Origin: Cupriavidus necator
GTDB taxonomy: Bacteria; Pseudomonadota; Gammaproteobacteria; Burkholderiales; Burkholderiaceae
Assembly (NCBI RefSeq): GCF_016127575.1
Contig: NZ_CP066018.1
Span: 1,470,001-1,502,000 of the forward strand
Direction of reading: 5' to 3'
Length of the DNA: 32,000 nt
In this document: in pieces, positions 2,507 to 32,000 of the stretch
How positions within the stretch are numbered: the stretch's first letter is position 1
Layout of the letters: every line of letters begins with the position of its first letter
Program-made: the position numbers and the translations under genes
The notes under the pieces: generated by a model
Seen by the model: only the letters and a program-made list of their open reading frames with translations
Database searches by the model: none
What the model was told of the DNA's origin: nothing

Positions 2507-2555
2507 GCAGCAGCAACGCGTGCCGCGCCTCCGCTGGGGTCTCCGCCAGGTCTAG

Positions 2556-7363: not shown

Positions 7364-7448
7364 GGCGAGGGGCGTTTTTCGGTGCCCCGGACTCCCTTAC
7401 CAATTGCAACAATGGAGTCTCGCCAATTTGGCGGACTCCGTTCCGCCG

Positions 7449-7778
7449 TCAGCGTGTAGTAATGGGCGGATCGAATGAATAGCCTTCGGCTGTCCAACCG
7501 ATCAGGCTGCCACACCTGACCCGGAAGTTCGGTATCGATTTCGCGCCGACCTGAAACAACCGGCATTCGGTCCTAGGCTCAACATAGCCAACGACCTTTG
7601 CCGCAGGGTCTAGCATGCCTTCCCACTCCTGGTATAGCGCAACACGTTTCGCAGCGACCCGGCCTTCGAAATCCAGGCGATAGCCGCCGATCAGGCTGAA
7701 TAGGGTAATGGCAACCGCTGCGGAACCTAGCCACAAAACGTAGGACCTGTTCTTATCAGTTTCTCCGACGCGCCACAT
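7449..7778 (-). CDS. Hypothetical small membrane-anchored protein
   Basis: This 109-aa ORF has one N-terminal hydrophobic helix (YVLWLGSAAVAITLFSLIGGY) followed by a plausible soluble domain. I recognise no family. It sits in an otherwise gene-poor stretch between the GGDEF-EAL gene and the PAAR cassette. An orphan immunity-type gene is possible but unsupported. Confidence 0.35.
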   Translation of the reverse strand: MWRVGETDKNRSYVLWLGSAAVAITLFSLIGGYRLDFEGRVAAKRVALYQEWEGMLDPAAKVVGYVEPRTECRLFQVGAKSIPNFRVRCGSLIGWTAEGYSFDPPITTR

Positions 7779-12235: not shown

Positions 12236-12972
12236 GCGATATCCAAATCGGCGTGCGCCAAGCCGCTCGCCTCGTCTATAAGGCGCTGCACACAACACTG
12301 TCGCCGGTCAACGATCAGGAATACCGCCAGTTGCTTGCGCAGTATCGGGCCAACCCTGCCTTTGCCGCGCAGGTACAAGACGTGGCTACGGGCATGGAGC
12401 TCATCATCCTGGACGTCAGCGAGCGCGGACTCATAATCGTACCCGCCTCGCGCGAAAGCCGCTTTGCCATCCGAATGACCGACATTCGCACCGGACTGGA
12501 TGCCGCACAGAAGGCAAGCCTGCTGCTGGCGCACGTGGCCATCGCTGCGGTCTTTTTTCCGACCACCGATGGTCTGGACGACGATAACTACACTCCCCCG
12601 CCGGCGCTTGTGTCAACCTGCCGAGACACGTTGCACGCCTTGGCTCGGCGCCTCAGGGAGTCGTCCAACCCGCCGGCAGATATCCCGCCTGAGCTTGCAC
12701 CAGGTTGGGAGTCGGTATCAGCCATGCCTCTGGTGCTGCCGGCGGGCCAGCGTGCCTCGGTCAACTCCCTGGTGGGTATCGTCAAGCTCGCGCTGGGCCA
12801 TATGCAAACACATGGCCTGGTACGTCTGGACAGAGAAGCCGATGACGATGCATCGGTGACCTATACCGCTACGCATCGCCTGCGTGTGCAGTTGCGCGAG
12901 ATCGCGTTGCGCCGCCTCTTCGACATCGCCCAGGAAGCCGCACGCATGCCGGCGACGACCACGGAGACATAG
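12232..12972 (+). CDS. JetB-like (KITE / DUF4194-like) subunit
   Basis: The GTG start overlaps the jetA-like stop (GTGA), and an AGAGAGG SD lies 5-6 nt upstream. At 246 aa it has the size and position of JetB. The sequence pattern ...TGMELIILDVSERGLIIVPA... and ...HGLVRLDREADDDASVTYTATHRL... fits tandem winged-helix domains. Confidence 0.55.
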   Translation: MSDIQIGVRQAARLVYKALHTTLSPVNDQEYRQLLAQYRANPAFAAQVQDVATGMELIILDVSERGLIIVPASRESRFAIRMTDIRTGLDAAQKASLLLAHVAIAAVFFPTTDGLDDDNYTPPPALVSTCRDTLHALARRLRESSNPPADIPPELAPGWESVSAMPLVLPAGQRASVNSLVGIVKLALGHMQTHGLVRLDREADDDASVTYTATHRLRVQLREIALRRLFDIAQEAARMPATTTET

Positions 12973-12973
12973 T

Positions 12974-15900: not shown

Positions 15901-17392
15901 ATACACCCGCGACTACCCCGGCGTCACGCGTACTCATGTAGCGCCGTTCGAGGGACAGGACCACTGTGCCATGCTGGTTGGTCTGGAAGCCAAACGTACG
16001 CTCGTCAACAAGGAACACCTGGACGCCGTTTCAGCCAAGGGCGCGGCCGAGCACGCATCAGAAGACTGGCACAAGAATAATCGCGATGTACCGCCGGCCA
16101 CTCCCGACATCGAGGCGCTGGATGCTGCTGCCCTCGATGCCCGAAAGGACGAGGCAGTGCGCATGAGTGAAGAGGCCGGCGCGCGCCAAAAGAACGCATC
16201 GGACGTGGCGGACCGGGCGCGCGGCACCGCCATGCGCCTCGGAGAAGCCGCTGGCCAGGACGACCGCCTGGCGGAATTGCTCAAGAGCACGATGAAGCTG
16301 GAGGCCACGCCGAACCCCGAACTGCTTGCACTGGAGATCGCCAGCCTGACGGGACAGCCACCAGTGCTGCTCGAACAGCTTGGCGAGTTAGTGCTCGAGG
16401 AGGACGCGAGCGACCAAGTCACACGCGCCGTCAAGAATCACGGCGCTAAATCGGGCCTATGCGACCGGGCTCGCGATAATGCGCGTACGGTTTTCGATGC
16501 GGTCAAGCTGGCCGCCGGCGACCCCGAGCTCCAGAAAGTCGAGCCGGAGCTTGCGATTGCCATGCTGGCTAACGAGTTCACAGCGGCTTGCAGCGATGCC
16601 GCCCGGCTGTTGGAAGGTCTCGAGGATCGCATTCATACCACCCAGGACAACCTGGACAAGATGCAGGCTGACTTCGATGCCTGCGTCGAGGAAATGCTGG
16701 CGCTGTCTCGCATTGCCCTGGGGTTGCTGAACTCGGCCATTGACAAGCGTGTGCCCGCCACCGCGCCGTATGTCGCAGGCAAGGCAGTCCTGAAGATGCG
16801 CGCGAACTTCGCGGCCATCAACGTCGAGAGCCGACGACAGGCGCTCACGCATTACCTGGACAGTCTGATTCAGGCTAACGTGCCTCCGGGCAAGGGCTCG
16901 GACTTAGTGGCTGAGGCCGTGCTTCGAATGTACGGCGGCCGCCCGCTGGGCCTACAGGTGCTACGCATGGTTATCGACGAAAGCCAACAGTACGTACCGG
17001 TGGAGAAGATTTCCAACTCTGGTGGCGAAGGTGTGGTGATGGCGTTGTTTCTCTACGTAGTCATCACCCAGCTACGCGCGGAGACCCAAGCCAAGCTGCA
17101 CAAGCTTGCCGGCGGCCCGCTTATCCTGGACAACCCGTTCGCCAAGGCCACCTCGCCGACCATGTGGAAGGCGCAGCGTCTGCTCGCGCAATCCATGGGG
17201 GTGCAGTTGGTGTTTGCCACTGCCATCCAGGACTACAATGCCCTGGCGGAATTCTCCGCCTTCGTCCGGCTACGACGCGCTGGGCAGAACAGCAAGACGG
17301 GGCGCTGGCATTTGGAGTCTGTCCGCTACCGCCTCAATGAGGAGATGGCCAATCCAGAGCTGGCGGCGCCTAGTACGATTGAGGCAGCCTGA
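12974..17392 (+). CDS. JetC-like SMC/MukB-like ABC ATPase (1472 aa)
   Basis: The ATG at 12974 follows a GGAG SD 7 nt upstream; the listed start at 12884 lies inside jetB. Walker A is NLENGGGKTSLL (13100-13120). About 1200 aa of heptad-like Ala/Glu/Arg/Leu-rich coiled coil follow, with a central non-coiled hinge-like segment (...VARLREAGVRSARPFNEYL...LGVSVAQSEMEKARGI...). The signature-like motif is SNSGGEG (17012-17032), and a Walker-B-like LILDNPF lies at 17120-17140. Confidence 0.8.
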   Translation: MQKISRIYLGNCGYLMAWYDGLLFDLTDPETHQPTDTIINLENGGGKTSLLSLIFSCFDTGQDRFLKHLQSKNNHFSQYFSQDGLPGFILVEWEMPSRTAGGEPYRLVVGQVVSIKAGNDVPESDRMFFSFEATSGLMLEMIPAPKLGTAPVTSLAEFSRWVHEEQRKHPDVYVTRKQADWQRHLREERLIDLEMLQMQVNFSVQEGGFDTGFLNFSSEAAFLQKFFHLTLDAQRAAAVRDAVAAACDKLRRKPHYQAKLTELTKFRAVLRSFEETAHAYRLSLADQMSVLVNGARLALALHERANTRRSKQQAELTFERDQRAVAATAASDVLGYSSQAASMASLIHVRAVRAALERTKQAALSLTDLQNDIKYVRAARVLAEVDAADKRLQTLEAQADLAKEGLQPFRDQLETEGALLRTALFKHEQALRETQRKIEKESIDRNDTVTGHRTALAEDEKRRRTAVNEQAKLTELEKAWEREHTRMVTSGLLSDAGEVTQVAVARWGETEQQMRREEAAHKIAQSQHEQQQGHWSSEEVRLGSEAGRFEGEIQSTADFIGEGTAERERLSQLPAILLAVESDTASPDSPALPSVLERVAAASASEISLSDVRLAELHATMQAIHETGVAGSSPDVARVVARLREAGVRSARPFNEYLADALPDAERARGLVLSDPARFLGVSVAQSEMEKARGIEWHGQKLTRPVVVSPLALESAAAAPTRLVVPAASDAAYNRAAAETLAGTLSETIRLEENRRAGYYQRQTDALAAMQALQTYVLRFGEGKLAAANLRRNELQSQLRSTLERKEKAREKAAAEAAEAKISNEAAVKCDRLALEACSHLQVLQRFMAEYEANREERLLRLDELEVILEDLEVRRLATEDEIQRLEDITREQSKVAIKAENSADNLAGERSRIEFYDKTLAADEHLKANPRDLEMLRGTYSDALTVYKAKAQDQLGVLEVQMQEARRRRDEKKQEYTRDYPGVTRTHVAPFEGQDHCAMLVGLEAKRTLVNKEHLDAVSAKGAAEHASEDWHKNNRDVPPATPDIEALDAAALDARKDEAVRMSEEAGARQKNASDVADRARGTAMRLGEAAGQDDRLAELLKSTMKLEATPNPELLALEIASLTGQPPVLLEQLGELVLEEDASDQVTRAVKNHGAKSGLCDRARDNARTVFDAVKLAAGDPELQKVEPELAIAMLANEFTAACSDAARLLEGLEDRIHTTQDNLDKMQADFDACVEEMLALSRIALGLLNSAIDKRVPATAPYVAGKAVLKMRANFAAINVESRRQALTHYLDSLIQANVPPGKGSDLVAEAVLRMYGGRPLGLQVLRMVIDESQQYVPVEKISNSGGEGVVMALFLYVVITQLRAETQAKLHKLAGGPLILDNPFAKATSPTMWKAQRLLAQSMGVQLVFATAIQDYNALAEFSAFVRLRRAGQNSKTGRWHLESVRYRLNEEMANPELAAPSTIEAA

Positions 17393-18387
17393 TGCCGGCG
17401 CAATTTTTCGCCAGACTGAAGGCATCTCCACGCAAGAGGGTGGAGCTTGTGCAGCTCAAGCAGTTGTACTTCGAGCTGTATCCGGAGATTCAGAACCACC
17501 CCGAACGTAGCCGCATGTTGCTGCAGGCCCTTCAGGCGCTGGCCGCAACCGGCGCCATAATGCTGCCAGCTCGCGCCAGTTGGGAGAAAGTCGGCCAGCC
17601 GGCGTTGCCGATGTGGATCAAACTCGTTCGCACGCACAATGAGGCGCCGAAGGAGGATTTCTCCAAAATTCCCTGGGTGCCAGAGCTGGGCTTCTGGCCT
17701 GAGCTAACGAGCGCCCAACTCGCCGCGGCAAAGTGCATTAACGAGTTCCTGCTTCAACGCCGCGGAAACCTCCAGCGAATCCCCATCAAGGAACGTTCGC
17801 TTGAGATCTTTGGAGACGAGAAGCGGCTCGACGCTATGAGGCAGGGCAACACACTGTTCTCAGGCCGATTGTCGCTTGATACGCTAGGTGCGTTCACCGT
17901 GCCTCTACCGCTTCCGTACCGACCGGCACCCGTATCGGGCAAACCGCTGCTCGTCGTCGAAAACCACAACAGCTACTGGAGCTTCGGTGAGTGGAATCAG
18001 CGAGCCCTACGATATTCAGCGGTCGTCTACGGTGCCGGGGAGGCATTTCGCAGCACGGGAGCAGCCCTAAGACAGGTTCTACATGAAGTGAAGGGCACCG
18101 ATGTCCTGTATCTAGGAGACCTGGATCCTAAAGGCATCGGCATTCCGCTTGACTTTAACCGCTCGTCGGCGAGTGATGAGCCCAAGGTTGCGCCAGCAAT
18201 GGAGTGGTATGAGTGGCTGTTGTCGCATGGGTTTCGGCGAAAGAAGGCTGTTTGCACAAACGCTCACCCGCAATCCGCCATTGATTGGCTCGGAGAAACC
18301 TTAGGCGAGGAACTCGCGGAGCTATGGCGGGGAGAGTGCTGGATTCCACAGGAGGCTTTGGGTTTCGAGCAGCTAAGCGCTCTGTGA
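17392..18387 (+). CDS. JetD-like Toprim nuclease subunit (DUF2220-like), short form (331 aa)
   Basis: The ATG shares 1 nt with the jetC stop (TGATG). KERSLEIFGDEKRLDAM, the Toprim Glu in LLVVENHNSYWSF (E at 17959-17961), the DxD in VLYLGDLDPKGIGIP (18115-18129) and a C-terminal IPQEAL all match the JetD/MksG C-terminal domain as I recall it. Confidence 0.8.
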   Translation: MPAQFFARLKASPRKRVELVQLKQLYFELYPEIQNHPERSRMLLQALQALAATGAIMLPARASWEKVGQPALPMWIKLVRTHNEAPKEDFSKIPWVPELGFWPELTSAQLAAAKCINEFLLQRRGNLQRIPIKERSLEIFGDEKRLDAMRQGNTLFSGRLSLDTLGAFTVPLPLPYRPAPVSGKPLLVVENHNSYWSFGEWNQRALRYSAVVYGAGEAFRSTGAALRQVLHEVKGTDVLYLGDLDPKGIGIPLDFNRSSASDEPKVAPAMEWYEWLLSHGFRRKKAVCTNAHPQSAIDWLGETLGEELAELWRGECWIPQEALGFEQLSAL

Positions 18388-20098: not shown

Positions 20099-20431
20099 TC
20101 AGACCAGTGCCTGCAGGCGGTCGGCGGTGTCGACCAGCTGTTGCTTGAGAGGCAAAAGCAGGGCGTGGAGGCCGATGCCTTGGGGGATGGTGTCGCTCTG
20201 TAGCTCCAGCAAGGTCAGGAAGGACTGAAGGCCGGCGCTGACGCGCAGGATGTCGTCAGTGGCTTCGAGGATGTGGTCCTCGAGGGTGATGGCTGTGCTG
20301 GGCGGGGGTGGAGCGGCTTTGGCTTGGCGGCGGGCCTGGGCGCGGTCGATTTTGGCCAGGTTTTCGGCTAGTTGGGCTTGCTTTTGGGCTAGGGTGGGCT
20401 CTTGGGGAGCCGGGGTGGTGGACTGCATCAT
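20099..20431 (-). CDS. Small hypothetical protein (110 aa), possibly DUF1484-like
   Basis: The internal ATG at 20431 follows a perfect GGAGG SD (ccGGAGGtcATGATG). The sequence MMQSTTPAPQEPTLAQKQAQLAENLAKID...LRVSAGLQSFLTLLELQSD... is helical. The DUF1484 resemblance rests only on my memory of size, taxon and pattern. Confidence 0.5.
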   Translation of the reverse strand: MMQSTTPAPQEPTLAQKQAQLAENLAKIDRAQARRQAKAAPPPPSTAITLEDHILEATDDILRVSAGLQSFLTLLELQSDTIPQGIGLHALLLPLKQQLVDTADRLQALV

Positions 20432-20853
20432 GACCTCCGGTACGTAGAAGATGGAGGCTCGTCGTCCGCTGTCAATCGGGTGGGCGAGCACGAAGCAGGG
20501 TTGACAGACCGGCACGTACCACCGGCGAGCCCGAAGGCTCCCCCGCCGCGGCCCGCCCCTTACGGGGCGTACGTAGGCGAAAGACGAGAGGATACCGCTT
20601 CGCTGCTCGTCCGGTGTACGTGGTCAGGCTGTCAAACCTGGTCGACCATTGCTGTGGTGACACTGCCAGTTTCCAACGGCAGTCCGCACGGAACAATGCA
20701 GCGAACTCTCAAAGCGGCCTTCCACCCGTCATGTGTAAAGCCCAAGTACGGTCCTTCACATGCTTGCCAGGACGCCTCGAGCTCGCCGAGTTTGACGCGG
20801 ATTCTGACAAGAGAGTCTGCCGCAGGGAAATGATGATTCCTCGACAGCAGGGG

Positions 20854-20921: not shown

Positions 20922-22037
20922 ATGCAATCCCTGTCTGTGGTCATGGAGAACTATCTGGCAACTAAGTCCGCTCTTAGCGGTAAAGCTCGAAACGCTAATA
21001 CGCCGGATCAGATAAGTATCAGCAAGACGCTACCTCAGTTCTTCATTGATATATTGGAGAGATTGGAGCGGCGTGGAGCTTTCAAGGTCGAAGGTTCCTA
21101 TGGTCAAGGGAATATCGCCGGCGTTCCTTGGATTGGCGTATTCAACCTCGAGATCACAACATCAGCACAAAACGGGTACTACATCGTCCTTCTCTTTTCA
21201 GAGGACATGAAGTCGTGTTACCTGAGCCTCAATCAAGGGGTTACAACTCTCAAGAATGCCTATGGGGTAGAGGTGGCACTTCACAAGCTTAGGGGGGCAG
21301 CCGAGCTAGCCTTAGAGGCCTTTGTGCCGGCCGCTGGCACGGTTAAAGGACCAATCGACCTAAAGGCCAGCAGGGCTTTGGGTAAAGGCTACGAGCGAGG
21401 TGCAATTGAGAGCTTTCGATACGATTTCTCCGCACTGCCAACGCCCGACAGCCTAGAATTAGACTTCAGATCACTGCTGGGGCACTACGATACGCTGGCG
21501 AATAAGGTCGGTCCGAGTCTGCAGGCATTGGTGCCAGTCAATGAAACCCAGTTTCAAAAAGCAGTGCTTGAAAAAGCAACAGCGACCACAAAAAAAGATT
21601 GTCCGCCATTTGTCGAACCTCCAGGAGGTGTACCCGTCTTGCCGAAGCGGGGAAACGGCGGCTCGTGGAAGTATCCACGAGATCCATTGGTAGCAGCTGA
21701 GGCAGTAAAGAGTGCAGAATACCGGTGCGAGCTATTCCCCGAGCACCAAACATTCAAATCCAGCTCGAAGAATGTACCGTACGTCGAGGCGCATCACCTT
21801 ATCCCCTTAAGCAGGCAGGCCGATTTTCAATTCTCTCTCGACATTACAGCGAATATCATTGCACTTTGCCCGACTTGTCATCAGCGCTTGCACCATGGGC
21901 ATGCATCCGAAAGGCGCAGTCCTTTGCGACGGCTACTGTCACAACGAAAGGATCGGCTCCAGGAGAAGCAAATTTTCATCGAGGAGGAAATATTGCTTCA
22001 CATTTACAGCAATGACATACTCGATAACGAAGATTGA
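20922..22037 (+). CDS. Type IV (modification-dependent) restriction endonuclease: MrcB_N (DUF3578) reader domain fused to an HNH nuclease
   Basis: The N-terminal EGSYGQGNIAGVPWIGVFNLEITTSAQNGYYIVLLFSEDMKSCYLSLNQGVT is the hallmark DUF3578/MrcB_N motif. The C-terminal YVEAHHLIPLS...ALCPTCHQRLHHG is an HNH motif. A purine-rich stretch (AAAGAAAG) precedes the ATG. Confidence 0.85.
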   Translation: MQSLSVVMENYLATKSALSGKARNANTPDQISISKTLPQFFIDILERLERRGAFKVEGSYGQGNIAGVPWIGVFNLEITTSAQNGYYIVLLFSEDMKSCYLSLNQGVTTLKNAYGVEVALHKLRGAAELALEAFVPAAGTVKGPIDLKASRALGKGYERGAIESFRYDFSALPTPDSLELDFRSLLGHYDTLANKVGPSLQALVPVNETQFQKAVLEKATATTKKDCPPFVEPPGGVPVLPKRGNGGSWKYPRDPLVAAEAVKSAEYRCELFPEHQTFKSSSKNVPYVEAHHLIPLSRQADFQFSLDITANIIALCPTCHQRLHHGHASERRSPLRRLLSQRKDRLQEKQIFIEEEILLHIYSNDILDNED

Positions 22038-22140: not shown

Positions 22141-23022
22141 ATGACATCGACCATTCAACTTACGTTAGACGGTTCTTTTTTGCGTGACAACAATCACGTT
22201 TCGCTCCGCGTCCTTGGGCGATCGATGATCTCTATTCAAGCCGCCGCTGACCGCGCTTATCTTGACATAAAATATGGCAATATCTGGAAGCATGCGCGAT
22301 TGCCAATTGCCTTCTACGATGACGCAGATTTTATAGTTGGGGACCCGGAAAAGGGAAGCTATATAATAAAGTTCCTCTCTGAGCAAGGAGAAGCCATTGT
22401 TAAGCGACTACGACAGGCAATTGCAGACCCCTATCGTTCGGCCATAGAGGGTGGGGAGCAAGAGATATTCTCGATTAAACGGCAGATCGAGGCGCGAAAA
22501 AATCAAGTAGATAACGTAATTTTGGTTCCGCAGACATTTGACGAGTTCTTGCAAGCCCCCGATGAATTGGCCACCCGAGCTTATGGTGACAAATCGATTA
22601 ATAAGAATATTGATCATATGCTTAGCCCGGTAAGGAAGGATCCGGATGCAATTCTAAAGATTTCCCTAAAGCCCAATTACCGCGAACGCACGGAAACATT
22701 CACTTTTACCCAGAAGGAGGCAATCGCTTTCAAGAAGGTGGTCAGTCAGCGGCAACTTGGAAATCCTGTGATCTACCATGGCAGACTAAGAGCACTGGAT
22801 CGGGGGCACAATCAAAAGGCAAACTTCAAAGGCAAATTCATTAATGCGGCGAATGATCGCGACCTGGCGTTATTCATCCAAAGCGAGCAGGATTACTCGG
22901 ATCTAGTCCCCTATATGGATCGGGAGAATCTCACAATTGTGGCATGTCCTATTGTGGAGTACGACTCGTTCGATCCCGTCGCGGGAGATATTCAATTCGT
23001 GAAGATTCTTACTGATGGCTGA
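22141..23022 (+). CDS. Hypothetical soluble protein (293 aa), no recognisable family
   Basis: This is a long ORF in a lower-GC block, with normal amino-acid composition and no TM segments. I see no P-loop, HNH or PD-(D/E)xK motif. Its stop overlaps the start of the next gene (ATGGCTGA). Confidence 0.7.
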   Translation: MTSTIQLTLDGSFLRDNNHVSLRVLGRSMISIQAAADRAYLDIKYGNIWKHARLPIAFYDDADFIVGDPEKGSYIIKFLSEQGEAIVKRLRQAIADPYRSAIEGGEQEIFSIKRQIEARKNQVDNVILVPQTFDEFLQAPDELATRAYGDKSINKNIDHMLSPVRKDPDAILKISLKPNYRERTETFTFTQKEAIAFKKVVSQRQLGNPVIYHGRLRALDRGHNQKANFKGKFINAANDRDLALFIQSEQDYSDLVPYMDRENLTIVACPIVEYDSFDPVAGDIQFVKILTDG

Positions 23023-23710
23023 GAAATCGATCGACAATCTTCGAGAGCAGTGCCTTGAGCTGCTACTAAATATTGTGCCAATCAGTCAGATTGGCTTCAT
23101 TTTTGTTACCGCCGTCGTTTTTCAGAGACTAGCCGAGGGCTCTGGTTCATCGGCATTTGGCGCCTTATCAGGGTTGGGCCTGAAGAATTTGTTTGCCATC
23201 AGCGATGGGTTGTTTTGGAGTGTCGGCATCGTCCTAGTGGGTGCGTGTTTCTTCTTAGCGCTAATCAACACCTACATATTAAAACTCGCACTACGCAAAT
23301 CATTTGAATCGAGCCGGATATCGGAGCAACTGTTACGCTGGATCTCTGTCGCAGCGAAGTCTATGGAGGGTTTGGATAAAGATGATCGCGGACCAATTCG
23401 AGATTCAATCAGCACCGAATTAACCAGAAGATTAAAAAAATATCATTCAAAGCGAATGCTGAGCGAGTCCCTCTTTTCGATTTCAGCAGTTATAGTTTAC
23501 GCATCCATTTATCTGATATTTATTAACCACTCAAATCTTTCCAAAATAGAATTTTCTTACCTAGAGTTGATCGTTGGCTCCGTTAGCACGCTTTTGTGTT
23601 TTTTTTGCCACCGGAACTCCATTCGATATGCACTATCGAGGGTGGTGCCTTTGCAAGTGTGCTTGACGGCCATGACCGGTGAGCTCGCTTTTTCCATCGA
23701 TGCTGACTAA
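23015..23710 (+). CDS. Hypothetical integral membrane protein (231 aa, ~4 TM helices with a charged central loop)
   Basis: The hydrophobic segments are IVPISQIGFIFVTAVVFQRLA, LFWSVGIVLVGACFFLALINTYIL, LFSISAVIVYASIYLIFI and LELIVGSVSTLLCFFC. The loop between TM2 and TM3 is charged (RKSFESSRISEQLLRW...DKDDRGPIRDSISTELTRRLKKYHSKR). It overlaps the upstream gene by 8 nt. Confidence 0.7.
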   Translation: MAEKSIDNLREQCLELLLNIVPISQIGFIFVTAVVFQRLAEGSGSSAFGALSGLGLKNLFAISDGLFWSVGIVLVGACFFLALINTYILKLALRKSFESSRISEQLLRWISVAAKSMEGLDKDDRGPIRDSISTELTRRLKKYHSKRMLSESLFSISAVIVYASIYLIFINHSNLSKIEFSYLELIVGSVSTLLCFFCHRNSIRYALSRVVPLQVCLTAMTGELAFSIDAD

Positions 23711-23770
23711 TTCCTCTCGATTTCATTCGGCTATGCTCTATCAGCAGCACCTTTCCAGTGCCTGGATCAG

Positions 23771-23810
23771 AACGGCGTAAGGCCACATAACCCCGCGCCG
23801 TTTTTGCTTT
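23771..23810 (+). terminator. Probable intrinsic terminator after the 22141-23710 gene pair
   Basis: The stem is AACGGCG...CGCCGTT (7 bp) with a long ~18-nt loop, followed by TTTGCTTT. It is weaker than the terminator at 20018. Confidence 0.4.
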
Positions 23811-24030
23811 CTGCGCCAGACGCCGCCTTCGCTCATCAGACAAGCGGCTGCAGGCGGTCGCCCGTTCTGGTCGAGCCGTTGATTTGATCGGAAACAGCTG
23901 GTCGTAGAGACCAATGTTTTCGGGGACGACGCCTATTGACCCAGCTCAAACCAGCTTTCGACTCCCCACCAAAGCAGTATTTACCAAAAATACCAAATCA
24001 GCACATCTTTGCTGTTTTTGGAGGGGACAA

Positions 24031-25149
24031 ATGCCTTTGGACACCAATGAACGGTTCAATCACATCCATTACGTTCCAATTCTCAAATGGAGGCAAGGCG
24101 AGTACCAGGCACTATGGCGCTTGAGCGATGCCGCCAAGCAATGGATAACACCGCTACTAGAAATTCCTACTGAGCCATGGGATTTCGAAACAGAAACGCC
24201 CGCAAAATCTTTAGATGAGCATCTCGAGCGCTTTGGAAACCGCCTCAAAAGTAAATGGGACACTCGTCGATGCTTTATCGACTCATGCTACATCGATGGT
24301 GTCGCACAAATGTCAACAGGACAGCATCACCTCGAGTTCCTGTTCGAACAAGCTCGGAATGAAGGAGCTTCACCGATACCGGTTACTGGGCTTGGCCGCC
24401 ATCCAGACTATGACGCAGCGGTACACAACATCGTTGCTCAAGATCAGCGGGGCGCGTGCGTTCGTCTTTCCGCTGAGGACTTTAGTGCCTCTATTTTGAA
24501 TGACCTTCAAAACTTGTTTGCTCGGCTAAATGTGGGGCCGCCCGACTCACACCTCGTTATAGACATGGCGGAGGACATCAGCGGCTCACCGGTCGCGCAA
24601 GGTCTCGCATGGAAGGCACTGCTTCAACAGACGCCCTGGCTAAACGACTGGAAATCTGTAACAGTTGCCGCAACGGCGTTTCCCAGCGCTCTACCAGCGG
24701 CACAGTTCCGTCCGCATGGACTCACACCAAGAACAGAGTGGAACGCATATAACGCCCTGTTGACAAACTTGGGTGGCCTGCGCATTCCAACTTTTGGGGA
24801 CTACTCGGTTTCACACCCACAGACCGAGCTACTCGATCCGCGTGTGCTCGATCCAAACGCGAAGATCAAGTACACCGTTGATGGCGAATGGCTCGTTCAC
24901 ACTGGTGCCCAAGTGAAGAAGCATGGTAGGGGTCAATTTCAAGGACTATGCCAAGAACTGATTGCCAACCCGTCAGCAGCTTTCCCAGGACCGACTTACT
25001 CATGGGGTGATGCATATATCCATGGGTGCGCAAGTGGCACCGAAACGACGGGCGGCACATCGACATGGCCTTCGGTCGGCAACAACCGACATATCACCAA
25101 GGTCATCAGGGATGTCGCCACGTTGTTCGGGTCTTCAACGATTCCCTGA
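24031..25149 (+). CDS. Beta-protein-family-like protein (PF14350-like; related in motif to 'sce7725 family')
   Basis: The internal ATG at 24031 follows GGAGGGG 5-7 nt upstream, so the listed start at 23914 is unlikely. The N-terminus HYVPILKWRQGEYQALWRLSDAAKQWITPLLEI matches the YvPiLK.k.gE..AL....i.PLiEi motif I recall for the Beta_protein family. A later ...TFGDYS... motif also fits. Confidence 0.6.
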   Translation: MPLDTNERFNHIHYVPILKWRQGEYQALWRLSDAAKQWITPLLEIPTEPWDFETETPAKSLDEHLERFGNRLKSKWDTRRCFIDSCYIDGVAQMSTGQHHLEFLFEQARNEGASPIPVTGLGRHPDYDAAVHNIVAQDQRGACVRLSAEDFSASILNDLQNLFARLNVGPPDSHLVIDMAEDISGSPVAQGLAWKALLQQTPWLNDWKSVTVAATAFPSALPAAQFRPHGLTPRTEWNAYNALLTNLGGLRIPTFGDYSVSHPQTELLDPRVLDPNAKIKYTVDGEWLVHTGAQVKKHGRGQFQGLCQELIANPSAAFPGPTYSWGDAYIHGCASGTETTGGTSTWPSVGNNRHITKVIRDVATLFGSSTIP

Positions 25150-25687
25150 CCAGCTGCCGAAGCTCACTAAGTGGCACCAAGGCCGCGGCAATCTCATACA
25201 ATTCGCGACGGTTGCCGCGGAGCCTTCGTTTTTCAACGCCTCGCTCCTCCAGGATCTTGGTTACCTCCGGACGCCACAGTAGGTGGGCGACATGAAAGGC
25301 CGACACCGAAGGATTTGCTCCAACTGCGCGGTGTGTTTCGATTGATACCGCCCCTCGCTTGCCCACGCTTGCCACCTTAATCCCCCACCATGGTGGCAAT
25401 ATTGACTCCGCCGACCCTAGGTGATGCTCTCCCACCACCAAGGTCGCCCTATCCATTGCTTTCGAATAGGCTTCAACTTGCGCTGGTAAGCGTTCCAGCG
25501 TGTCAGCATCGCTTTTCAGTTCGTAGCCGTGCAGAAATCCATTCACTACTGCAATGTCAACACGGCACAAGCCGTGCTGCAGGCCGAGCTCTTCAACAAC
25601 CAGCACATTGGGGTCAGCAACATGTTCGGCGAGCACCTTCCGGAATACGGCCGCCCGAACATCGCGATCTCTAGTCTTGTTGGTCAT
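25106..25687 (-). CDS. PD-(D/E)xK-fold protein resembling the 'sce7726 family' (MmcB-like)
   Basis: The ATG at 25687 is preferred over the listed TTG at 25726. RDVRAAVFRKVL...VVEELGLQHGLCRVDIAVVNGFLHGYELKSDADTLERLPAQVEAYSKAMDRATLVV has the D...E-x-K core (RVDIA / YELK) and matches my memory of sce7726-family sequences. Its 3' end overlaps the convergent Beta-like gene by 44 nt. Confidence 0.55.
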   Translation of the reverse strand: MTNKTRDRDVRAAVFRKVLAEHVADPNVLVVEELGLQHGLCRVDIAVVNGFLHGYELKSDADTLERLPAQVEAYSKAMDRATLVVGEHHLGSAESILPPWWGIKVASVGKRGAVSIETHRAVGANPSVSAFHVAHLLWRPEVTKILEERGVEKRRLRGNRRELYEIAAALVPLSELRQLVRESLKTRTTWRHP

Positions 25688-25833
25688 AGTGGAGCTGCGC
25701 ACGGATCGCGCCAGCGATGTGCTCAATAGTTCGCACTCGAAGAACGACAGACATTTTACTCTGTCGGCTACGAGTGTGCGTCTAGGGGCATTGCTTACAA
25801 CAAGCCTTTTGCTCGCTCTTCAGCAGCCACGGA

Positions 25834-25912
25834 AGCCTGAGGCAGGACGCCCCCTCGCCCGGGTAGAGCCCGAAAGCCTGAGGGTCCCCACTGGACCCCA
25901 GGGGACCTGAGG
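25834..25912. promoter_or_regulatory. Three copies of the palindromic heptamer CCTGAGG plus a 7-bp hairpin, in the McrC / sce7726-like intergenic region
   Basis: CCTGAGG occurs at 25836-25842, 25877-25883 and 25906-25912. GGTCCCC (25883-25889) pairs with GGGGACC (25901-25907). The cluster lies 150-220 nt upstream of the minus-strand gene that starts at 25687. Confidence 0.2.
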
Positions 25913-25960
25913 TTGCGGAAGCATATATTGGTCTCAGCGGACTCATCCGATCAGACTTGG

Positions 25961-27313
25961 TCAGCCAACAGCTGACGACTTCGCGGCTTCCACCGGATCT
26001 CTGTCAGGAAACACAGTAATAAATGGAGCGCCGTCAGGAACCAAAAGCCGGCGGGACTTAAGACAGAACGGCAATACCCATAGCCGCAGGCCCTCTACTT
26101 TGGGGAACTCGAACACCGGGACTGGCCGCTCAAACGAGGCGGTTTTCGGGTAGATCAAGACGACATCCCCCCTACCGCTCAGGTAGCTCTGACCATAGGC
26201 CTGCAGTTGGTAGAAGTCACTTTGCGAGAGGCCGTACTTGTCCGTGCCATTCGCTTTCATCCCGTCCAGCAGTTTCCACTTGGTATCCAGTACCAGCAAG
26301 TCCCGGTCTGCATTCCGGATCAGCAAATCGGGCTTCAGCCGGAACCAGTTCTGTTCACGATGGCGAACCAGGTGATGACTACGAGCCTGTGATTTCAGGA
26401 TCAGCGGTCGGGCCAGCTGTTTCGCCAGGTGCTTGGCGACGAATGCCTCGAATACAGCCTCCATCGGGAACAGCATCGACGGCGCACAGTGCGCGCCGGC
26501 GCCAGTCAAAGGCGATTCCTCGTCGAGGATGAGCCGCGCCCAGGCCAGCGCGTCAGCGTAATAACCCATGCCACGGTCCAGCCTCACCCGCTGAAAGTCG
26601 ATCTGAGGCTGTGCGGAAACTGGTACCTCCGCGAACACGAACGCCAGCTCGCGGGCCAGTTGGTTGAGCTGCGAAGCAGATAACTCCAATACACGCCGCA
26701 ATGCGGCATGCAAAAGGCGATTCTCTGGACGGTCGATTGTGAACTCGTCGTGGTCGGTGAAGAATCGGTCGGCCCGATACAGGTTTTGCTGCAAATGCGG
26801 CGCGATCAACAGCTTACCCCTCAGGGCATAGAGGTTGTCTTGGCGGCTTGAATAGTCGCTGCGCAGCCCACGCTTTACGATGTGGTCAACGGCGCGCAGG
26901 AATTCTGCAACGAAGACCTCCAACAATGGCATCCGCGCTGCCGAAATGTTGGCGCTGTCGGTTTTAACGTGGCGGAAGCCCTGGAGGCAGCAGAGCATTT
27001 CAATCAGAAGCTTACGCGCCTCGACGGCGCCGCCGCCGATCGCCTTGCCGACCTTGGGCAACACCTCGATCTGGAAGCCGTCCGGTGCGCGGATCACGCC
27101 AACAAAACTGGTCACTTGAACGACACGACGCCCGCGGCGCTGGGCCAGGCGCAGCCATGCCGCCTCCCCTTGCTCGGCAGCCCGCAAGCACTGGTCTTCA
27201 AGCCACCCGTAGACCGCATCCGGGACGGCGTGCAAGCCCTCGGTACCTGCAACGCCCGCCGTCGCCGCGATCAGCGTCTCGAATTCGAAAATCGTGATGC
27301 CGTTCACTTGCAT
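25961..27313 (-). CDS. mcrC: McrC-like nuclease subunit
   Basis: The ATG at 27313 (MQVNGITIFEFE...) lies 8 nt after the McrB stop; the listed TTG at 27325 is an alternative. VTSFVGVIRAPDGFQIEVLPKVGK is the typical McrC N-terminal pattern. The C-terminal PD-(D/E)xK core is KPDLLIRNADRDLLVLDTKWKLL. Confidence 0.8.
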   Translation of the reverse strand: MQVNGITIFEFETLIAATAGVAGTEGLHAVPDAVYGWLEDQCLRAAEQGEAAWLRLAQRRGRRVVQVTSFVGVIRAPDGFQIEVLPKVGKAIGGGAVEARKLLIEMLCCLQGFRHVKTDSANISAARMPLLEVFVAEFLRAVDHIVKRGLRSDYSSRQDNLYALRGKLLIAPHLQQNLYRADRFFTDHDEFTIDRPENRLLHAALRRVLELSASQLNQLARELAFVFAEVPVSAQPQIDFQRVRLDRGMGYYADALAWARLILDEESPLTGAGAHCAPSMLFPMEAVFEAFVAKHLAKQLARPLILKSQARSHHLVRHREQNWFRLKPDLLIRNADRDLLVLDTKWKLLDGMKANGTDKYGLSQSDFYQLQAYGQSYLSGRGDVVLIYPKTASFERPVPVFEFPKVEGLRLWVLPFCLKSRRLLVPDGAPFITVFPDRDPVEAAKSSAVG

Positions 27314-27321
27314 CCCGAAGA

Positions 27322-29700
27322 TCAAGTCGACAAGGTCTGGTAGATGCCGATGTAGGCATCCAAATTCGAAAACGCGGCCTCCTGCAACGCGTACCGGCGC
27401 TTGGAGCCGTAGCTGTCCAATCCGTGGTCACTACCGAATAGGCGAGCCAGATCGTCCTCGTGATCCTGACTTTCCGCCACGAACTGTGCAGCTGCCGGCT
27501 TCTGATTGTCGGCGAGAACAAGACGAATCTTCTGCCAGTCCTCGAAGAAGTACTCTTCGAGCAGGGGCAGGATGCGCGTGCTGAACACCTGCTGCAGCGC
27601 CACCAGTCGTTCGTCGCCGTCAGGGAACTTAGCCAACGTCGTGAAGTATGCGTGGCCGATGCAATGGTCGCGGTCGTAGAGTGCCTCGACGCGCTGGTTG
27701 ATCGCATCGAGCATGCGCGGTACGTCGATCACCTGCTCGCCCAGGGTGACCCGCAGGCCCGCAAGCGGCGCGCCCGATTCATCGCGAGCATCCGGCATCA
27801 CCGGCACGAATTCGAACCGGCGACGGAGCGCGGTATCCAGTAGCGCCAGGGAGCGGTCTGCCGTGTTCATCGTGCCAATGATGTCGACATTCGATGGCAC
27901 AGAGAAGCCGTCGCCGGACGGCAAGGTCACCGAAACGGCGTTGTCGGCGCCTTCTCGCTTGTCAGGCTCGATCAAGGTGATCAGCTCGCCGAATATCTTG
28001 CTGATGTTGCCCCGGTTGATCTCGTCGATCACCATCGCGAATCGCTGATCCGGTGCCGATCGTGCTCTACGGCACAGTTCCTTGAAGACGCCCGCGCGAA
28101 TCTCGTACTGAATTTCGCCAGCCTCTGCGTCGCCATTGAGAACCGGCCGGAGCCCCTCGACGAACTCCTCGTAACCGTAAGACTGGTGGAAGGTGACGAA
28201 ACTGTAGCGCTGGACCTTACCTGATGCCGGCGCACCGATTTGGTAGGCCTTCACGGTTTCGATCACGTCCGCAACGGCTTCCTTCCAGTCGCCTGCAAAC
28301 TGCCAGACAGAGTCCGTTGTCTTGTCGAACACGGCGGGCGCGAGACGCATCTTGGTGTTGACGGTGTGTGAATCCTCGACCGTATGGTGTTGCAGTGTGC
28401 CCCAGAGCGTTTGCCTCACGTTCTGCTTGCGCCCCTTTGCTGCTGCAATTGCCTGAATGAACGGGTGCTCATATAGCTGACCCACTTTGGCCTTGCCGCC
28501 CAACTCATAGAGCGCAGCGGCGGCGCCTTCCCACCATGTCAGGGTAGCAATCCGAGTAGCAATCAACTGTTCTCGCCATTCCGCGTTGGACACGGCGGTC
28601 ATGGCCTGCTCGTACTCCCGCTTGAGCAATTTCGACAGCTCATAGGTCTTTCCCGTGCCAGGCGGACCGTAATAGATGCGGTTGATGGGTTGCCTCACCT
28701 CATCGTTATCGGCTGGCTCCTCCTCATCGGAGTCCTCTTCGGGCTCCACCGGGTCGTCTCGCAGTTCATCGGGCCACAGACCTGGACGCTCCGTGTCGAG
28801 CACCAGCCAGTCATCGAGTGAATCTCGCTCAGCCGACAGGGCTGCCTCGATATTCGCGACCAGCCGCTCCGTCAACGGCTCGCGGTGAAGCTTGGGCACC
28901 TCGCCCAGTTCCCGCGTCCATGAGATCTTCCGGATCCGGGTGCCCCGAATCACGCCGAGCACACCGACGGCGCGTTCGCTGCCAGGATTCTTGCGGCCAA
29001 AGCGCACCTGGACACCCTTGCCCATGTGCCACCAATCTAGACCGGCGGCGTGAACGACTCGCGCCAACCGACAGAATAACGCCTTGTCCTGGGCAGACCA
29101 TGAGGCGCGGAAGGTCCTGAACACTGGCTTGCCGTCGAAGTGCTTGAGCAGGTCCTCGTCGCTCAGCTTCTTGCCCAGGTTCAGCTTGACGACGACCTCG
29201 TCGTAGCGCAGCTTAAAGTTGCGGATCGCTTCAACACTCCACGCAACTAGTTGGTCCAGCGACTTCCCCAGTCCATCGGACGCTGGCAGTGTAGCGATGA
29301 AGGGGGACGTGTTGTTGTAGGCGCCACGCAGTGCTAGATAGGCCTTTCTCGTCGCGTCCAATTCGTCGAGCCCAACGGTATCGATCTTGACTACGAAGCC
29401 GTCATCGGCGCCGATGCCAACTGTGTAAGCCAACTCTTTCGGCGCCTCAGATGAAGGGTAGATTTTGGCCCAGTTGTAGCTGGCAAAGTTGTTGCCCTGG
29501 TTGGTCGGGCGCTTACGAATCTCGACGCGCCCGACAGGGAACAACTCGGCCTTAACCTTGTCCGCCCACGCCTCCGTCACCTCGTAGGCCTTCTTCAGAT
29601 CTTCATAAGCGCGGTTCTGCTCGGGGTTGGACTCGTCACGCTTCTGCCCCTTCCACTTGTTCAGCAGCTTGAAGTAGTCACTGGTGAAATAGTCAGCCAT
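27322..29700 (-). CDS. mcrB: McrB-family AAA+ GTPase with a non-canonical ~330-aa N-terminal region and an insertion inside the AAA+ domain
   Basis: Walker A is YYGPPGTGKTY. The McrB hallmarks are FHQSYGYEEFVEG, MVIDEINRGNISKIFGELITLIEPDKR and IIGTMNTADRSLALLDTALRRRFEF. An acidic linker (DDPVEPEEDSDEEEPADNDE) precedes the AAA+ domain. About 130 aa separate Walker A from the FHQSYGYEEF motif. Confidence 0.85.
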   Translation of the reverse strand: MADYFTSDYFKLLNKWKGQKRDESNPEQNRAYEDLKKAYEVTEAWADKVKAELFPVGRVEIRKRPTNQGNNFASYNWAKIYPSSEAPKELAYTVGIGADDGFVVKIDTVGLDELDATRKAYLALRGAYNNTSPFIATLPASDGLGKSLDQLVAWSVEAIRNFKLRYDEVVVKLNLGKKLSDEDLLKHFDGKPVFRTFRASWSAQDKALFCRLARVVHAAGLDWWHMGKGVQVRFGRKNPGSERAVGVLGVIRGTRIRKISWTRELGEVPKLHREPLTERLVANIEAALSAERDSLDDWLVLDTERPGLWPDELRDDPVEPEEDSDEEEPADNDEVRQPINRIYYGPPGTGKTYELSKLLKREYEQAMTAVSNAEWREQLIATRIATLTWWEGAAAALYELGGKAKVGQLYEHPFIQAIAAAKGRKQNVRQTLWGTLQHHTVEDSHTVNTKMRLAPAVFDKTTDSVWQFAGDWKEAVADVIETVKAYQIGAPASGKVQRYSFVTFHQSYGYEEFVEGLRPVLNGDAEAGEIQYEIRAGVFKELCRRARSAPDQRFAMVIDEINRGNISKIFGELITLIEPDKREGADNAVSVTLPSGDGFSVPSNVDIIGTMNTADRSLALLDTALRRRFEFVPVMPDARDESGAPLAGLRVTLGEQVIDVPRMLDAINQRVEALYDRDHCIGHAYFTTLAKFPDGDERLVALQQVFSTRILPLLEEYFFEDWQKIRLVLADNQKPAAAQFVAESQDHEDDLARLFGSDHGLDSYGSKRRYALQEAAFSNLDAYIGIYQTLST

Positions 29701-29706
29701 CGTTCT

Positions 29707-30420
29707 TTAGATTCCTTCAACATCGATTCCATGCTCGGCCAGCCAGGCCTTGCGTTGCGCATAGTCCGGCATGGCACGCTCCACTCGAAGCCAGAACGCA
29801 GGCGTGTGGTGCGGCTCATGCAGATGGGCAATCTCATGCACCACGACATACTCAGCGATGCGCGCCGGCAGCAGGATTGCCTTCCAGTGGAAGTACAGCC
29901 AGTCGCCCTTGCCACACGAACCCCAGCGATATCCAAGGTCCTGCACCTTGACGCCGGCAGGCGTCACCTCCATTCGCGACTGGTAGTCAGCTACACGCCC
30001 CGAAAGCCAGGCCTTGGCACGCTCGCCGTACCAGCGGATGAAATGCTCGCGCGCGGCGGGTAGGGCGTCACGGCGCAGACAAAAGCGGCCTCCATTCAAC
30101 TTCAGTGGCACATTCTGTTCATCGACCACCTTCAGCCGATGGCTGCGGCCGAGATACAAGAATCCCTCGCCTCCGACGAATTCCTTGCGCGGAACCTGGC
30201 GCTGCAAGCGGTCCTTCTCGGCCAGCTTGGTGTAGATCCAGAAGCGCTTCTCCAGCACGAATGCTCGCAGCGCGGCCTCGTCCACCTCCGGCGGTGCGCA
30301 GAGCATCAAGTCGCCACTGCGCTCCACGGTGATCTGCATAGTTCTGCGGCGCGCGCTCCGCTGGAGCGTGAACCGGAGGTCACCGATCTGAAGGCTTGGC
30401 AATTTCACCGGCGAAGGCAT
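29707..30420 (-). CDS. DUF45 / YgjP-like (M48-family) zinc metallopeptidase
   Basis: VVHEIAHLHEPHHTPAFWLRVERAMPDYAQRKAWL is the HExxH...HxxxFW signature of DUF45. The N-terminal FTLQRSARRRTMQITVERSGDLMLCAP pattern is typical. The ATG lies 4 nt downstream of the hsdR stop. Confidence 0.85.
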   Translation of the reverse strand: MPSPVKLPSLQIGDLRFTLQRSARRRTMQITVERSGDLMLCAPPEVDEAALRAFVLEKRFWIYTKLAEKDRLQRQVPRKEFVGGEGFLYLGRSHRLKVVDEQNVPLKLNGGRFCLRRDALPAAREHFIRWYGERAKAWLSGRVADYQSRMEVTPAGVKVQDLGYRWGSCGKGDWLYFHWKAILLPARIAEYVVVHEIAHLHEPHHTPAFWLRVERAMPDYAQRKAWLAEHGIDVEGI

Positions 30421-30424
30421 CGAA

Positions 30425-32000
30425 TCACACCTGCATCAGCTTGTCGTGGCTGGCGCGAGCCTGATCAATCAGCTTGTCGGCCAGCACACCGGCCCTGTCT
30501 GCATCTAACAGCGGTGGACGCAGGCGCATCAGATGCTCGAACAAGACACCGTCGCGAAGATTCTCCTGGTCTGGAATCTTGTTCGCGCTCCAGATCTTCG
30601 GGTTCTCCTTGAGCTCCTGCACCAGCAAGTCAACGAGCTCGACCGTCACGTCCTTCAGTCGAAGCAGTTCGGCCGACGTGGGCGTTTGCCCGGCGCACAC
30701 CACATCCAGTACGGTGCGCAGGAAGGGCGCGCAATGCTCAGGCAGGTCACCTGGAGTATTGTCGGAGCTAGCCTTTCCAGTGCGCAACTCGTCGATGATC
30801 TCCTGCAGCTGTGCGATAACCTCATTCCACTTCTCGCCGAGCGTCTTCAGGATGTCGTTCAGCCGCTCAGAGAGCTTGCGATACAGCACCGGATCTTCGT
30901 CCGTGTGCTTGCGGATATGCGAGCGGATCGCGTGTTCCATCTCCGAGGCCTTTGCGCGATCGTTGACGGTACGTGCAAGATGGGTGTCGAACTCGGCATC
31001 GGTCAGCTGGATCGGCGGGACCTTTGGATCGACACCTAGCGAGATTACGTGGTCGTCGATCAGCTTGCGCACCTTTGCGCCGACGTCTTTGCCCAGGACC
31101 GGCGTGTCCTTGTACCGGTTGCGCGCCCGGGCATAGATGTAGGCTAGCCGCTTCGCATCACCCGAGTACGGCAGCCCCTCGGGGCGCGGCAGTACCGTGT
31201 CAAGCGACGCCAGAAACGCCTTGAGCTTGACGGCGAACTCGGCCCGCAGCTTCTCGCTGCCCAGCGCTTCGACGCACGCCTCAGTGTCGTCCAGCGATTC
31301 AATGCCCCGTTGGCGGAACAGGTCTGCCACACGGAGATGCCGGTCGCGTAGCACCGGCACCTCGTCTTTCAGGCTGGCCAGCGCGCCTTCCACGTCCTCG
31401 TCCGCGTAGGCGGCGAGAGCTTCCTTCAGATGCTGGGCGACACCGTAGTAGTCCACCACGATGCCGCAACGCTTGCCGAAGCCTGTGCGGTTTACGCGGG
31501 CGATGGCCTGCAACAACTCCGCTTCGCGGATTGGCCTATCCAGGTACATCACGCCCTCGATAGGCGCGTCGAAGCCAGTGAGCAGCATTGACTTCACCAC
31601 CAGAAATGCGAGCGGATCGGTCTTCTCCGGCTTGGCATGGAACAGTGGCTTCTTGAATCGCTTAATCAGTTGGTCGTGAGCCGCGGCATCAGTCCAGTTT
31701 TTCCAGGCAGGATCGTCGTTATTGCTGCCGGAGATAATTGGTGCGAATTCGATGCGGGCCAATATGCCCTGGTAGCGCCAGGCTTGGACAACTGCCTGCA
31801 TCTTTGGCGAGCGCTGGCACAGGGCTTCGTCGTCCAGGGCCTTGTCTTCCGGGCTGAGCGCCTGCGCCTCTAGCAGCAGTTCGTCCCTGGCCCTCCTCAA
31901 GGCTCCGAAGTAGCGAATCGCCGCCAGCCGGCTGTACGCCACGACCTGTGCCTTGTAGCCGTTGGGCAATATGTTGGTGACGTAGTGGCGAATGATGTCA
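30425..32000 (-). CDS. hsdR: Type I restriction enzyme R subunit, C-terminal part (the N-terminus lies beyond the right window edge)
   Basis: The frame stays open upstream of the listed start through to position 32000 (...DIIRHYVTNILPNGYKAQVVAYSR...). Helicase motif VI-like QAIARVNR and a long helical C-terminal domain are typical of HsdR. Confidence 0.85.
   Translation of the reverse strand, partial: DIIRHYVTNILPNGYKAQVVAYSRLAAIRYFGALRRARDELLLEAQALSPEDKALDDEALCQRSPKMQAVVQAWRYQGILARIEFAPIISGSNNDDPAWKNWTDAAAHDQLIKRFKKPLFHAKPEKTDPLAFLVVKSMLLTGFDAPIEGVMYLDRPIREAELLQAIARVNRTGFGKRCGIVVDYYGVAQHLKEALAAYADEDVEGALASLKDEVPVLRDRHLRVADLFRQRGIESLDDTEACVEALGSEKLRAEFAVKLKAFLASLDTVLPRPEGLPYSGDAKRLAYIYARARNRYKDTPVLGKDVGAKVRKLIDDHVISLGVDPKVPPIQLTDAEFDTHLARTVNDRAKASEMEHAIRSHIRKHTDEDPVLYRKLSERLNDILKTLGEKWNEVIAQLQEIIDELRTGKASSDNTPGDLPEHCAPFLRTVLDVVCAGQTPTSAELLRLKDVTVELVDLLVQELKENPKIWSANKIPDQENLRDGVLFEHLMRLRPPLLDADRAGVLADKLIDQARASHDKLMQV

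Follow-up and report, generated by a model that had tools for sequence, protein, structure and literature searches.

A protein of the beta family is common to two published anti-phage systems. The gop-beta-cII locus of satellite phage P4 gives E. coli protection from lambda and P1 (Rousset et al. 2022, PMC9122126); in P4, beta neutralises gop, which is toxic in its absence (Ghisotti 1990, as cited in PMC9122126), and a phage accessory gene, orf184, sets off cell death via gop-beta-cII (bioRxiv 2023.04.06.535777). The second system, PD-lambda-2, comprises a HigB-like component A, an Xre-peptidase component B and a component C described as 'related to a P4 phage antitoxin' (Vassallo et al. 2022, PMC9519451); component C, the beta protein of that system, is dispensable for toxin neutralisation and required for defence (PMC9519451). 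The subject of this work is a stretch of 32,000 nucleotides (nt) from Cupriavidus necator (contig NZ_CP066018.1, positions 1,470,001 to 1,502,000; 'the window' denotes this whole stretch), in which a beta gene and a cII-like gene are arranged tail to tail with overlapping coding ends. We judge it probable that positions 23745-25949 of the window are a self-contained two-gene cassette, beta plus the cII-like gene, with an anti-phage function and situated in a defence island.

The beta gene (24031-25149, plus strand) begins with the ATG at 24031, ends with the TGA at 25147-25149, and encodes 372 amino acids (aa) with the N-terminus MPLDTNERFNHIHYVPILKWRQGEYQAL. Position 24031 is the best start because a GGAGG ribosome-binding site (24020-24024, plus strand) lies 6 nt before this ATG and because the family alignment starts ~10 residues into the protein; the TTTT-GGAGG block around the ribosome-binding site is retained in relatives. 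The cII-like gene (25106-25687, minus strand; cII for short) begins with the ATG at 25687, ends with the stop codon at 25106-25108, and encodes 193 aa, including the segment VEELGLQHGLCRVDIAVVNGFLHGYELKSDADTLERLP. The 44-nt overlap that an earlier note on this DNA, made from the sequence alone, had derived from the stop positions (25149 on the plus strand and 25106 on the minus strand) is exact: positions 25106-25149 are dual-coding, with beta codons 359-372 and the stop opposite cII codons 180-193 and the stop. From the coordinates of the open reading frames (ORFs), complementarity of the beta and cII mRNAs over a minimum of 44 nt is unavoidable.

The earlier note had assigned the plus-strand gene to the Beta_protein family, and it does belong there: Pfam PF14350 matches it with an expectation value (E) of 2.6e-106 and 356.4 bits (gathering score 27), and the alignment places residues 14-360 on model positions 1-342 of 342, the full length of the model. 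The further equation of Beta_protein with sce7725 was not confirmed, as neither sce7725 nor any other NCBIfam model matches the window beta, P4 beta or a Sorangium beta at E ≤ 0.01. In PADLOC, beta is matched by PD-Lambda-2_C (PDLC03984; E 1.5e-49) and by 'beta' (E 6.1e-12). The AlphaFold model of beta (predicted local distance difference test, pLDDT, 91) has alternating strands and helices; in Foldseek it weakly resembles many TIM barrels (OMP decarboxylase, TrpA, aldolases, endonuclease IV) and strongly matches the beta protein of Gordonia phage Powerball (template modelling score, TM, 0.85), and a sequence search of the PDB gave no meaningful relative for beta or cII. Alignment and model together place the invariant residues K19, E44, D84, R145, D178 and D257 at or near strand ends. 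This arrangement of acidic and basic residues suggests an active site, and beta is probably a TIM-barrel-like protein, enzymatic or a sensor.

The assignment of the minus-strand gene to the sce7726 family is likewise upheld by NCBIfam sce7726_fam (NF033832; E 1.5e-46, 158.6 bits against a cut-off of 70), of which model positions 2-183 of 184 align with cII residues 6-188 of 193. A newer Pfam name for the family, PF26915 Phage_P4_cII, appears on a 99%-identical protein (P0001) and on all listed homologues, and at E ≤ 0.001 the family falls into 5067 clusters of 50% identity. PADLOC gives 'cll' (E 4.9e-27); this model and that named 'beta' we take, from their names, to be components of gop-beta-cII. 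The PD-(D/E)xK-type motif that the earlier note had recognised is borne out by both alignment and model. Residues E33, D44, E56 and K58 are invariant in an alignment of 35 sequences, and in the AlphaFold model (pLDDT 92) they are held by an alpha-beta-beta-beta-alpha-beta core (helix 7-22, strands 29-36, 41-48 and 52-58, helix 67-77, strand 80-86) that is followed by a five-helix C-terminal domain. The protein thus has the E...D...(D/E)xK signature, with E56-x-K58 as its last element, on the core that is characteristic of the PD-(D/E)xK fold, which suggests a nuclease-like core joined to a helical C-terminal domain, as predicted structures go.

The window pair and P4 gop-beta-cII (Rst_gop_beta_cll in DefenseFinder and PADLOC) have homologous beta (Pfam Beta_protein) and cII (sce7726_fam) proteins in the same convergent, tail-to-tail arrangement, but each shared protein is just 24% identical between the two (E 3e-8 for beta and 2e-13 for cII). 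P4 cII, which scores 151 bits against sce7726_fam and is named 'sce7726 family protein' in RefSeq, differs from the window protein in its length of 264 aa, in having a C-terminal extension and in having no W-R motif (see below). The RefSeq P4 record has gop at 247-648 (plus strand), beta at 651-1718 (plus strand) and cII at 1746-2540 (minus strand); the last two are separated by a 27-nt gap with a terminator hairpin, in contrast to the 44-nt overlap here. Moreover, where P4 has gop immediately upstream of beta, the window has only the convergent beta and cII: when P4 gop was compared by phmmer with every six-frame ORF of 60 aa or longer, both in the window and in the 80 loci of relatives introduced below, P4 itself was the only sequence recovered. 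The earlier note had called the function of the pair uncharacterised, which is half true. The two genes are the beta and cII of P4, and related systems have been published as anti-phage; what stands is that the searched literature holds nothing on the mechanism of beta or cII, nor on the overlap, which is not proof of absence.

To place the pair among its relatives, GTDB species genomes were searched with the cII alignment, giving 362 stretches that are confirmed relatives, of which the 80 best loci were looked at in detail. A convergent beta is present in 78 of these 80 loci, all found through cII, and beta never occurs in another orientation; one of the two loci lacking it is cut by a contig end. 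The two families are therefore a conserved neighbour pair, as the earlier note had stated. Beta and cII overlap in 77 of the 78 loci, by 11-134 nt, and in 76 of the 77 the length of the overlap is congruent to 2 modulo 3, as with the 44 nt here. The odd-phase overlap (82 nt) belongs to Variovorax sp. UC74_104 (locus L005), in which the last 30 residues of beta are unrelated to the family, suggesting a frameshifted tail (pseudogene or sequencing error). The loci carry the taxon labels Pseudomonadota, Myxococcota, Acidobacteriota, Actinomycetota, Chloroflexota, Bacteroidota, Bacillota, Planctomycetota, Armatimonadota, Atribacterota and Melainabacteria, together with one member of a candidate phylum. 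Viral contigs behave in the same way: beta is present in 79 of 80 IMG/VR loci, and of the 53 non-identical pairs counted there, all but one (52) are convergent, and the 50 that overlap (by 11-110 nt) do so without exception in the common phase. Among complete E. coli genomes, 127 of 5426 have a close relative of the pair, in which the label 'beta family protein' stands beside 'sce7726 family protein'.

Pairs without overlap are rare, namely P4, Xenorhabdus vietnamensis (a gap of 39 nt) and two viral contigs. In an enterobacterial clade, where cII is displaced by 33 nt, the overlap is down to 11 nt and involves the tails only; the idea that even the minimum overlap of 11 nt represents interpenetration of structured cores was therefore dropped. 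In locus L082, whose beta and cII are 82% and 85% identical to those of the window and overlap by the same 44 nt, the gene caller skipped an intact cII (7079-7657, minus strand) and called a 96-aa ORF on the opposite strand instead; automated annotation can thus lose an overlapping partner, which is a warning for gene callers. The 3' overlap is a family trait and not an accident of one genome, and its phase is kept in nearly all relatives surveyed.

The constraint that the two frames exert on each other was followed codon by codon in 73 non-identical pairs anchored on the W codon of cII. To the left of this codon nucleotide conservation has the periodicity of beta codons and to the right that of cII codons, and the switch from the beta to the cII frame falls at TCGCCA (25115-25120), where the minus-strand cII codons W190 (TGG) and R191 (CGA) lie opposite V362-A363-T364 of beta. 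The CCA of this hexamer is invariant in all 73 pairs. The Arg that follows W is encoded by CGA or AGA in 64 of the 73 pairs (88%), compared to 30% for the other Arg codons of the same genes, because its third base is the T of a conserved V/L/I codon of beta; conversely, A or S at beta position 363 and an A-initial codon at 364 are what the W-R codons of cII dictate. The third codon position in either gene is paired with the second codon position in the other, so no change within the overlap is silent in both frames. Outside the W-R point, most of the overlap consists of low-confidence C-terminal tails of drifting length (pLDDT 54-58 in the last blocks). R181, R187, W190 and R191 of cII, all within the overlap, are family-invariant. 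Each frame of the overlap constrains the other, and the overlap is an old dual-coding one.

No convincing intrinsic terminator was found at or near the overlap; a consensus scan gave a weak site at 25202-25221, inside cII, and 4 sites in all against 2.2 ± 1.5 expected. Nor is there a significant hairpin in or near the overlap (folding z-scores -1.7 to +0.2). With no convincing terminator to separate beta from cII, each gene's transcription must continue into its neighbour. The 7-nt inverted repeat TCAGGGA (25106-25112) / TCCCTGA (25143-25149) at the two edges of the overlap arises because both genes end in CCC-TGA (Pro-stop); the hairpin predicted from it does no better than shuffled sequences (z about -0.6), and since other loci differ in their tails it is unlikely to be a general element.

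Among PADLOC models, the window beta has its highest scores with PD-Lambda-2_C and thus corresponds to component C of PD-lambda-2, whereas the upstream components A and B are absent from the window and the published system consists of three genes without cII. Clustering of neighbouring ORFs shows that 24 of the 80 GTDB loci have an HTH (helix-turn-helix)/Peptidase_M78 gene, preceded by HigB or DUF6932, upstream of beta (L030, L033, L046, L052, L054-L056, L060, L062-L064, L066-L073, L075-L077, L079 and L080), and all 24 of these loci with the PD-lambda-2 layout have a convergent, overlapping cII, which may therefore be an overlooked, possibly dispensable fourth gene of such loci. No recurrent third gene family other than HigB/DUF6932 with the Xre-peptidase was found among neighbours in the 80 loci. 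With one recurrent partner set, confined to 24 of 80 loci, beta-cII appears to be a common core to which variable toxin modules are added upstream; the window has this core and nothing more.

The borders of the cassette are given by three metagenome contigs (L083-L085) whose beta is 97% identical to that of the window. Their DNA is 93% identical to the window over exactly 23745-25949, a 2.2-kb unit with both genes and both upstream regions, and the flanks differ; at the right border homology ends 12 nt before the McrC stop codon, and in the metagenome contigs an SRA_ScoMcrA gene lies directly upstream of the cassette. The same 2.2-kb unit in different flanks, with no third partner, indicates an autonomous two-gene form. 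Within the 286 nt of the cassette upstream of beta no conserved ORF was found, the cassette contains no Rfam family, and it has no match in PLSDB, so that a plasmid origin is unsupported. Elsewhere the pair comes after gyrB in Ralstonia solanacearum, is flanked by the lysis genes and the terminase in a lambdoid prophage of E. coli 1303 (59-nt overlap, annotated by RefSeq), and lies near the integrase in Gordonia phage Powerball (gp33/gp32, 89-nt overlap). These prophage pairs resemble that of the window in having two genes, a convergent overlap and accessory-gene positions, and differ in being prophage-borne, while the window copy has type IV restriction genes on both sides, within a defence island.

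That the pair sits between other defence genes, as the earlier note had stated, agrees with the annotation of the window. Upstream of it, on the plus strand, an MrcB_N domain is fused to an HNH nuclease (20922-22037); downstream, on the minus strand, are McrC and a 792-aa McrB-like AAA protein whose N-terminal region is long (25961-29700), followed by a YgjP-like metallopeptidase and then a partial type I restriction R subunit (29707-31969). Methylation-dependent restriction modules (MrcB_N-HNH and McrBC) thus stand on both sides of the pair. Further upstream is a Wadjet type III system, of which JetC (12884-17392) and JetD (17392-18387) are strong PADLOC matches, and the ORFs at 10670-12235 and 12232-12972 upstream of JetC are probably JetA and JetB; a GGDEF-EAL protein is also present. 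The pair is located in a defence island. Rfam RF01695, a C4 antisense RNA, matches 20476-20564 on the minus strand over its full length (52.9 bits; gathering score 45). The segment that contains it (20382-20774) shares ~79% identity with the left-hand flank in the related metagenome contigs, and the RNA may be a boundary mark of the variable island. Between the HNH gene and the cassette are two plus-strand ORFs, one of 293 aa (22141-23022; phrog_28486, E 4.7e-61) and one of 231 aa (23015-23710), the latter hydrophobic and membrane-like with a very weak NCBIfam match to a transmembrane family (E 0.008). They are co-directional, overlap by 8 nt and have a GC content of 46-47% compared to ~60% elsewhere; neither has a Pfam or PADLOC match, nor was an HTH, peptidase or HigB found in them. 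Both lie outside the conserved cassette, the contigs that share it having no matching DNA there, and they could be a two-gene defence candidate in their own right.

In the reading that we prefer, the beta-cII pair would act as an anti-phage module, probably by abortive infection, with the cII-like nuclease as the putative effector and beta as its control, sensing or trigger partner. A controlling role for beta is consistent with its restraint of gop in P4 and with the need for it for defence in PD-lambda-2, and the complementary mRNAs and converging polymerases would possibly couple expression of the two genes. Because the coding ends interpenetrate, beta and cII would rarely come apart, as they have in few lineages, P4 among them. 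Several observations weigh against this reading. The known toxin of P4 is gop, which is absent here; the clone of PD-lambda-2 that was used reaches ~396 nt past the end of beta, so that any cII in it is incomplete, and yet defence worked. The nuclease-fold matches of cII are weak, the best in Foldseek being SfsA (E 0.045, probability 0.89) and none falling below E 0.001; the other weak matches are tRNA-splicing endonucleases and AF1548, and all, including SfsA, have an endonuclease-like fold. Foldseek and PDB sequence comparisons gave beta no functionally annotated structural relative, a consensus scan found no promoter-like site, and P4 and Xenorhabdus vietnamensis lack the overlap, which is thus not essential to the family. 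Finally, the searched literature contains neither a description of a stand-alone beta-cII pair nor an experiment on such pairs, which does not prove their absence. A different account of the same genes, in which the pair is a plain toxin-antitoxin addiction module (cII the toxin, beta the antitoxin) that stabilises the island and does not act on phages, draws on the neutralisation of gop by beta in P4 (Ghisotti 1990, as cited in PMC9122126) and on the toxin-antitoxin-like nature of PD-lambda-2 (PMC9519451). We regard it as doubtful, since in PD-lambda-2 beta is needed for defence and not for neutralisation of the toxin, and since the pair occupies typical defence positions in prophages and defence islands.

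As to the overlap itself, one explanation would make it a local artefact: an insertion junction, which the earlier note had allowed for, with native homologues of the minus-strand gene ending ~14 codons earlier, or else a stop codon placed wrongly or an ORF that is not a gene. Nothing was found in favour of this, beyond the cII of L082 missed by one gene caller, which shows how odd such pairs can look, and its probability is negligible: the sce7726 model extends to residue 188 of 193, the four residues named above are invariant within the overlap, most homologues are slightly longer and not shorter, the overlap recurs in 77 GTDB loci and 50 viral pairs, and RefSeq annotates overlapping pairs in E. 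coli. Model coverage, invariant residues and recurrence together rule the artefact out. An explanation to which we give a chance somewhat short of even is that the overlap is an inherited, selectively neutral layout, in which the ends interpenetrated once in an ancestor without any regulatory role; separation would require duplication of the shared segment, and the overlap would persist for that reason. The drift in length from 11 to 134 nt with the phase alone kept is what constraints on indels to multiples of 3 predict, most of the overlap consists of low-confidence tails, the enterobacterial clade has gone down to 11 nt of tails only, and the P4 system is experimentally active with no overlap. 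Against neutrality, separation did occur several times (P4, Xenorhabdus vietnamensis, two viral contigs) and so is possible, yet more than 90% of the surveyed lineages still overlap, and no terminator stands between the genes. Selection of the overlap as a regulatory device, in which convergent transcription and 3' RNA pairing reciprocally balance beta against the cII nuclease, is rather unlikely. It is favoured by the necessary complementarity of at least 44 nt, by the very broad retention of the overlap and by the failure to find a significant hairpin or a convincing terminator in or around it, but the length of the overlap is not conserved, and P4, with a terminator hairpin in place of the overlap, still defends. 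That P4 defends without overlap argues against an essential role for it. A still more specific proposal, that the overlap is a selected control element forming a reciprocal beta/cII switch that flips once host transcription or RNA turnover is disturbed by a phage, we consider less likely again. A regulatory device of this kind would resemble 3'-overlapping type I toxin-antitoxin pairs such as txpA/RatA and bsrG/SR4 in Bacillus subtilis, which are likewise convergent units, with RNAs that pair at their 3' ends; there, however, a non-coding RNA forms one of the partners, whereas in the beta-cII pair both strands encode conserved proteins.

Two items appear new: the stand-alone form of two genes without gop, and the 3' overlap, near-universal and locked in phase, in which the codons of the two genes constrain each other. 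The distribution of partners suggests that beta and cII together form the conserved unit, with gop and the HigB/Xre-peptidase toxins looking like add-ons. Since the PADLOC matches are components of three-gene systems only, rule-based defence finders would probably miss the stand-alone pair, a common arrangement and a simpler system for working out the roles of beta and cII. Whether cII has been overlooked as a fourth gene in PD-lambda-2-type loci is a further question that the pair raises. The beta-cII overlap is one of the clearer long convergent overlaps retained across a wide bacterial range and is thus a test case for antisense dual coding. Were it a selected control element, the beta-cII pair would be an old two-gene core behind gop-beta-cII and PD-lambda-2, and it would be a protein-protein counterpart of the 3'-overlapping type I toxin-antitoxin systems.

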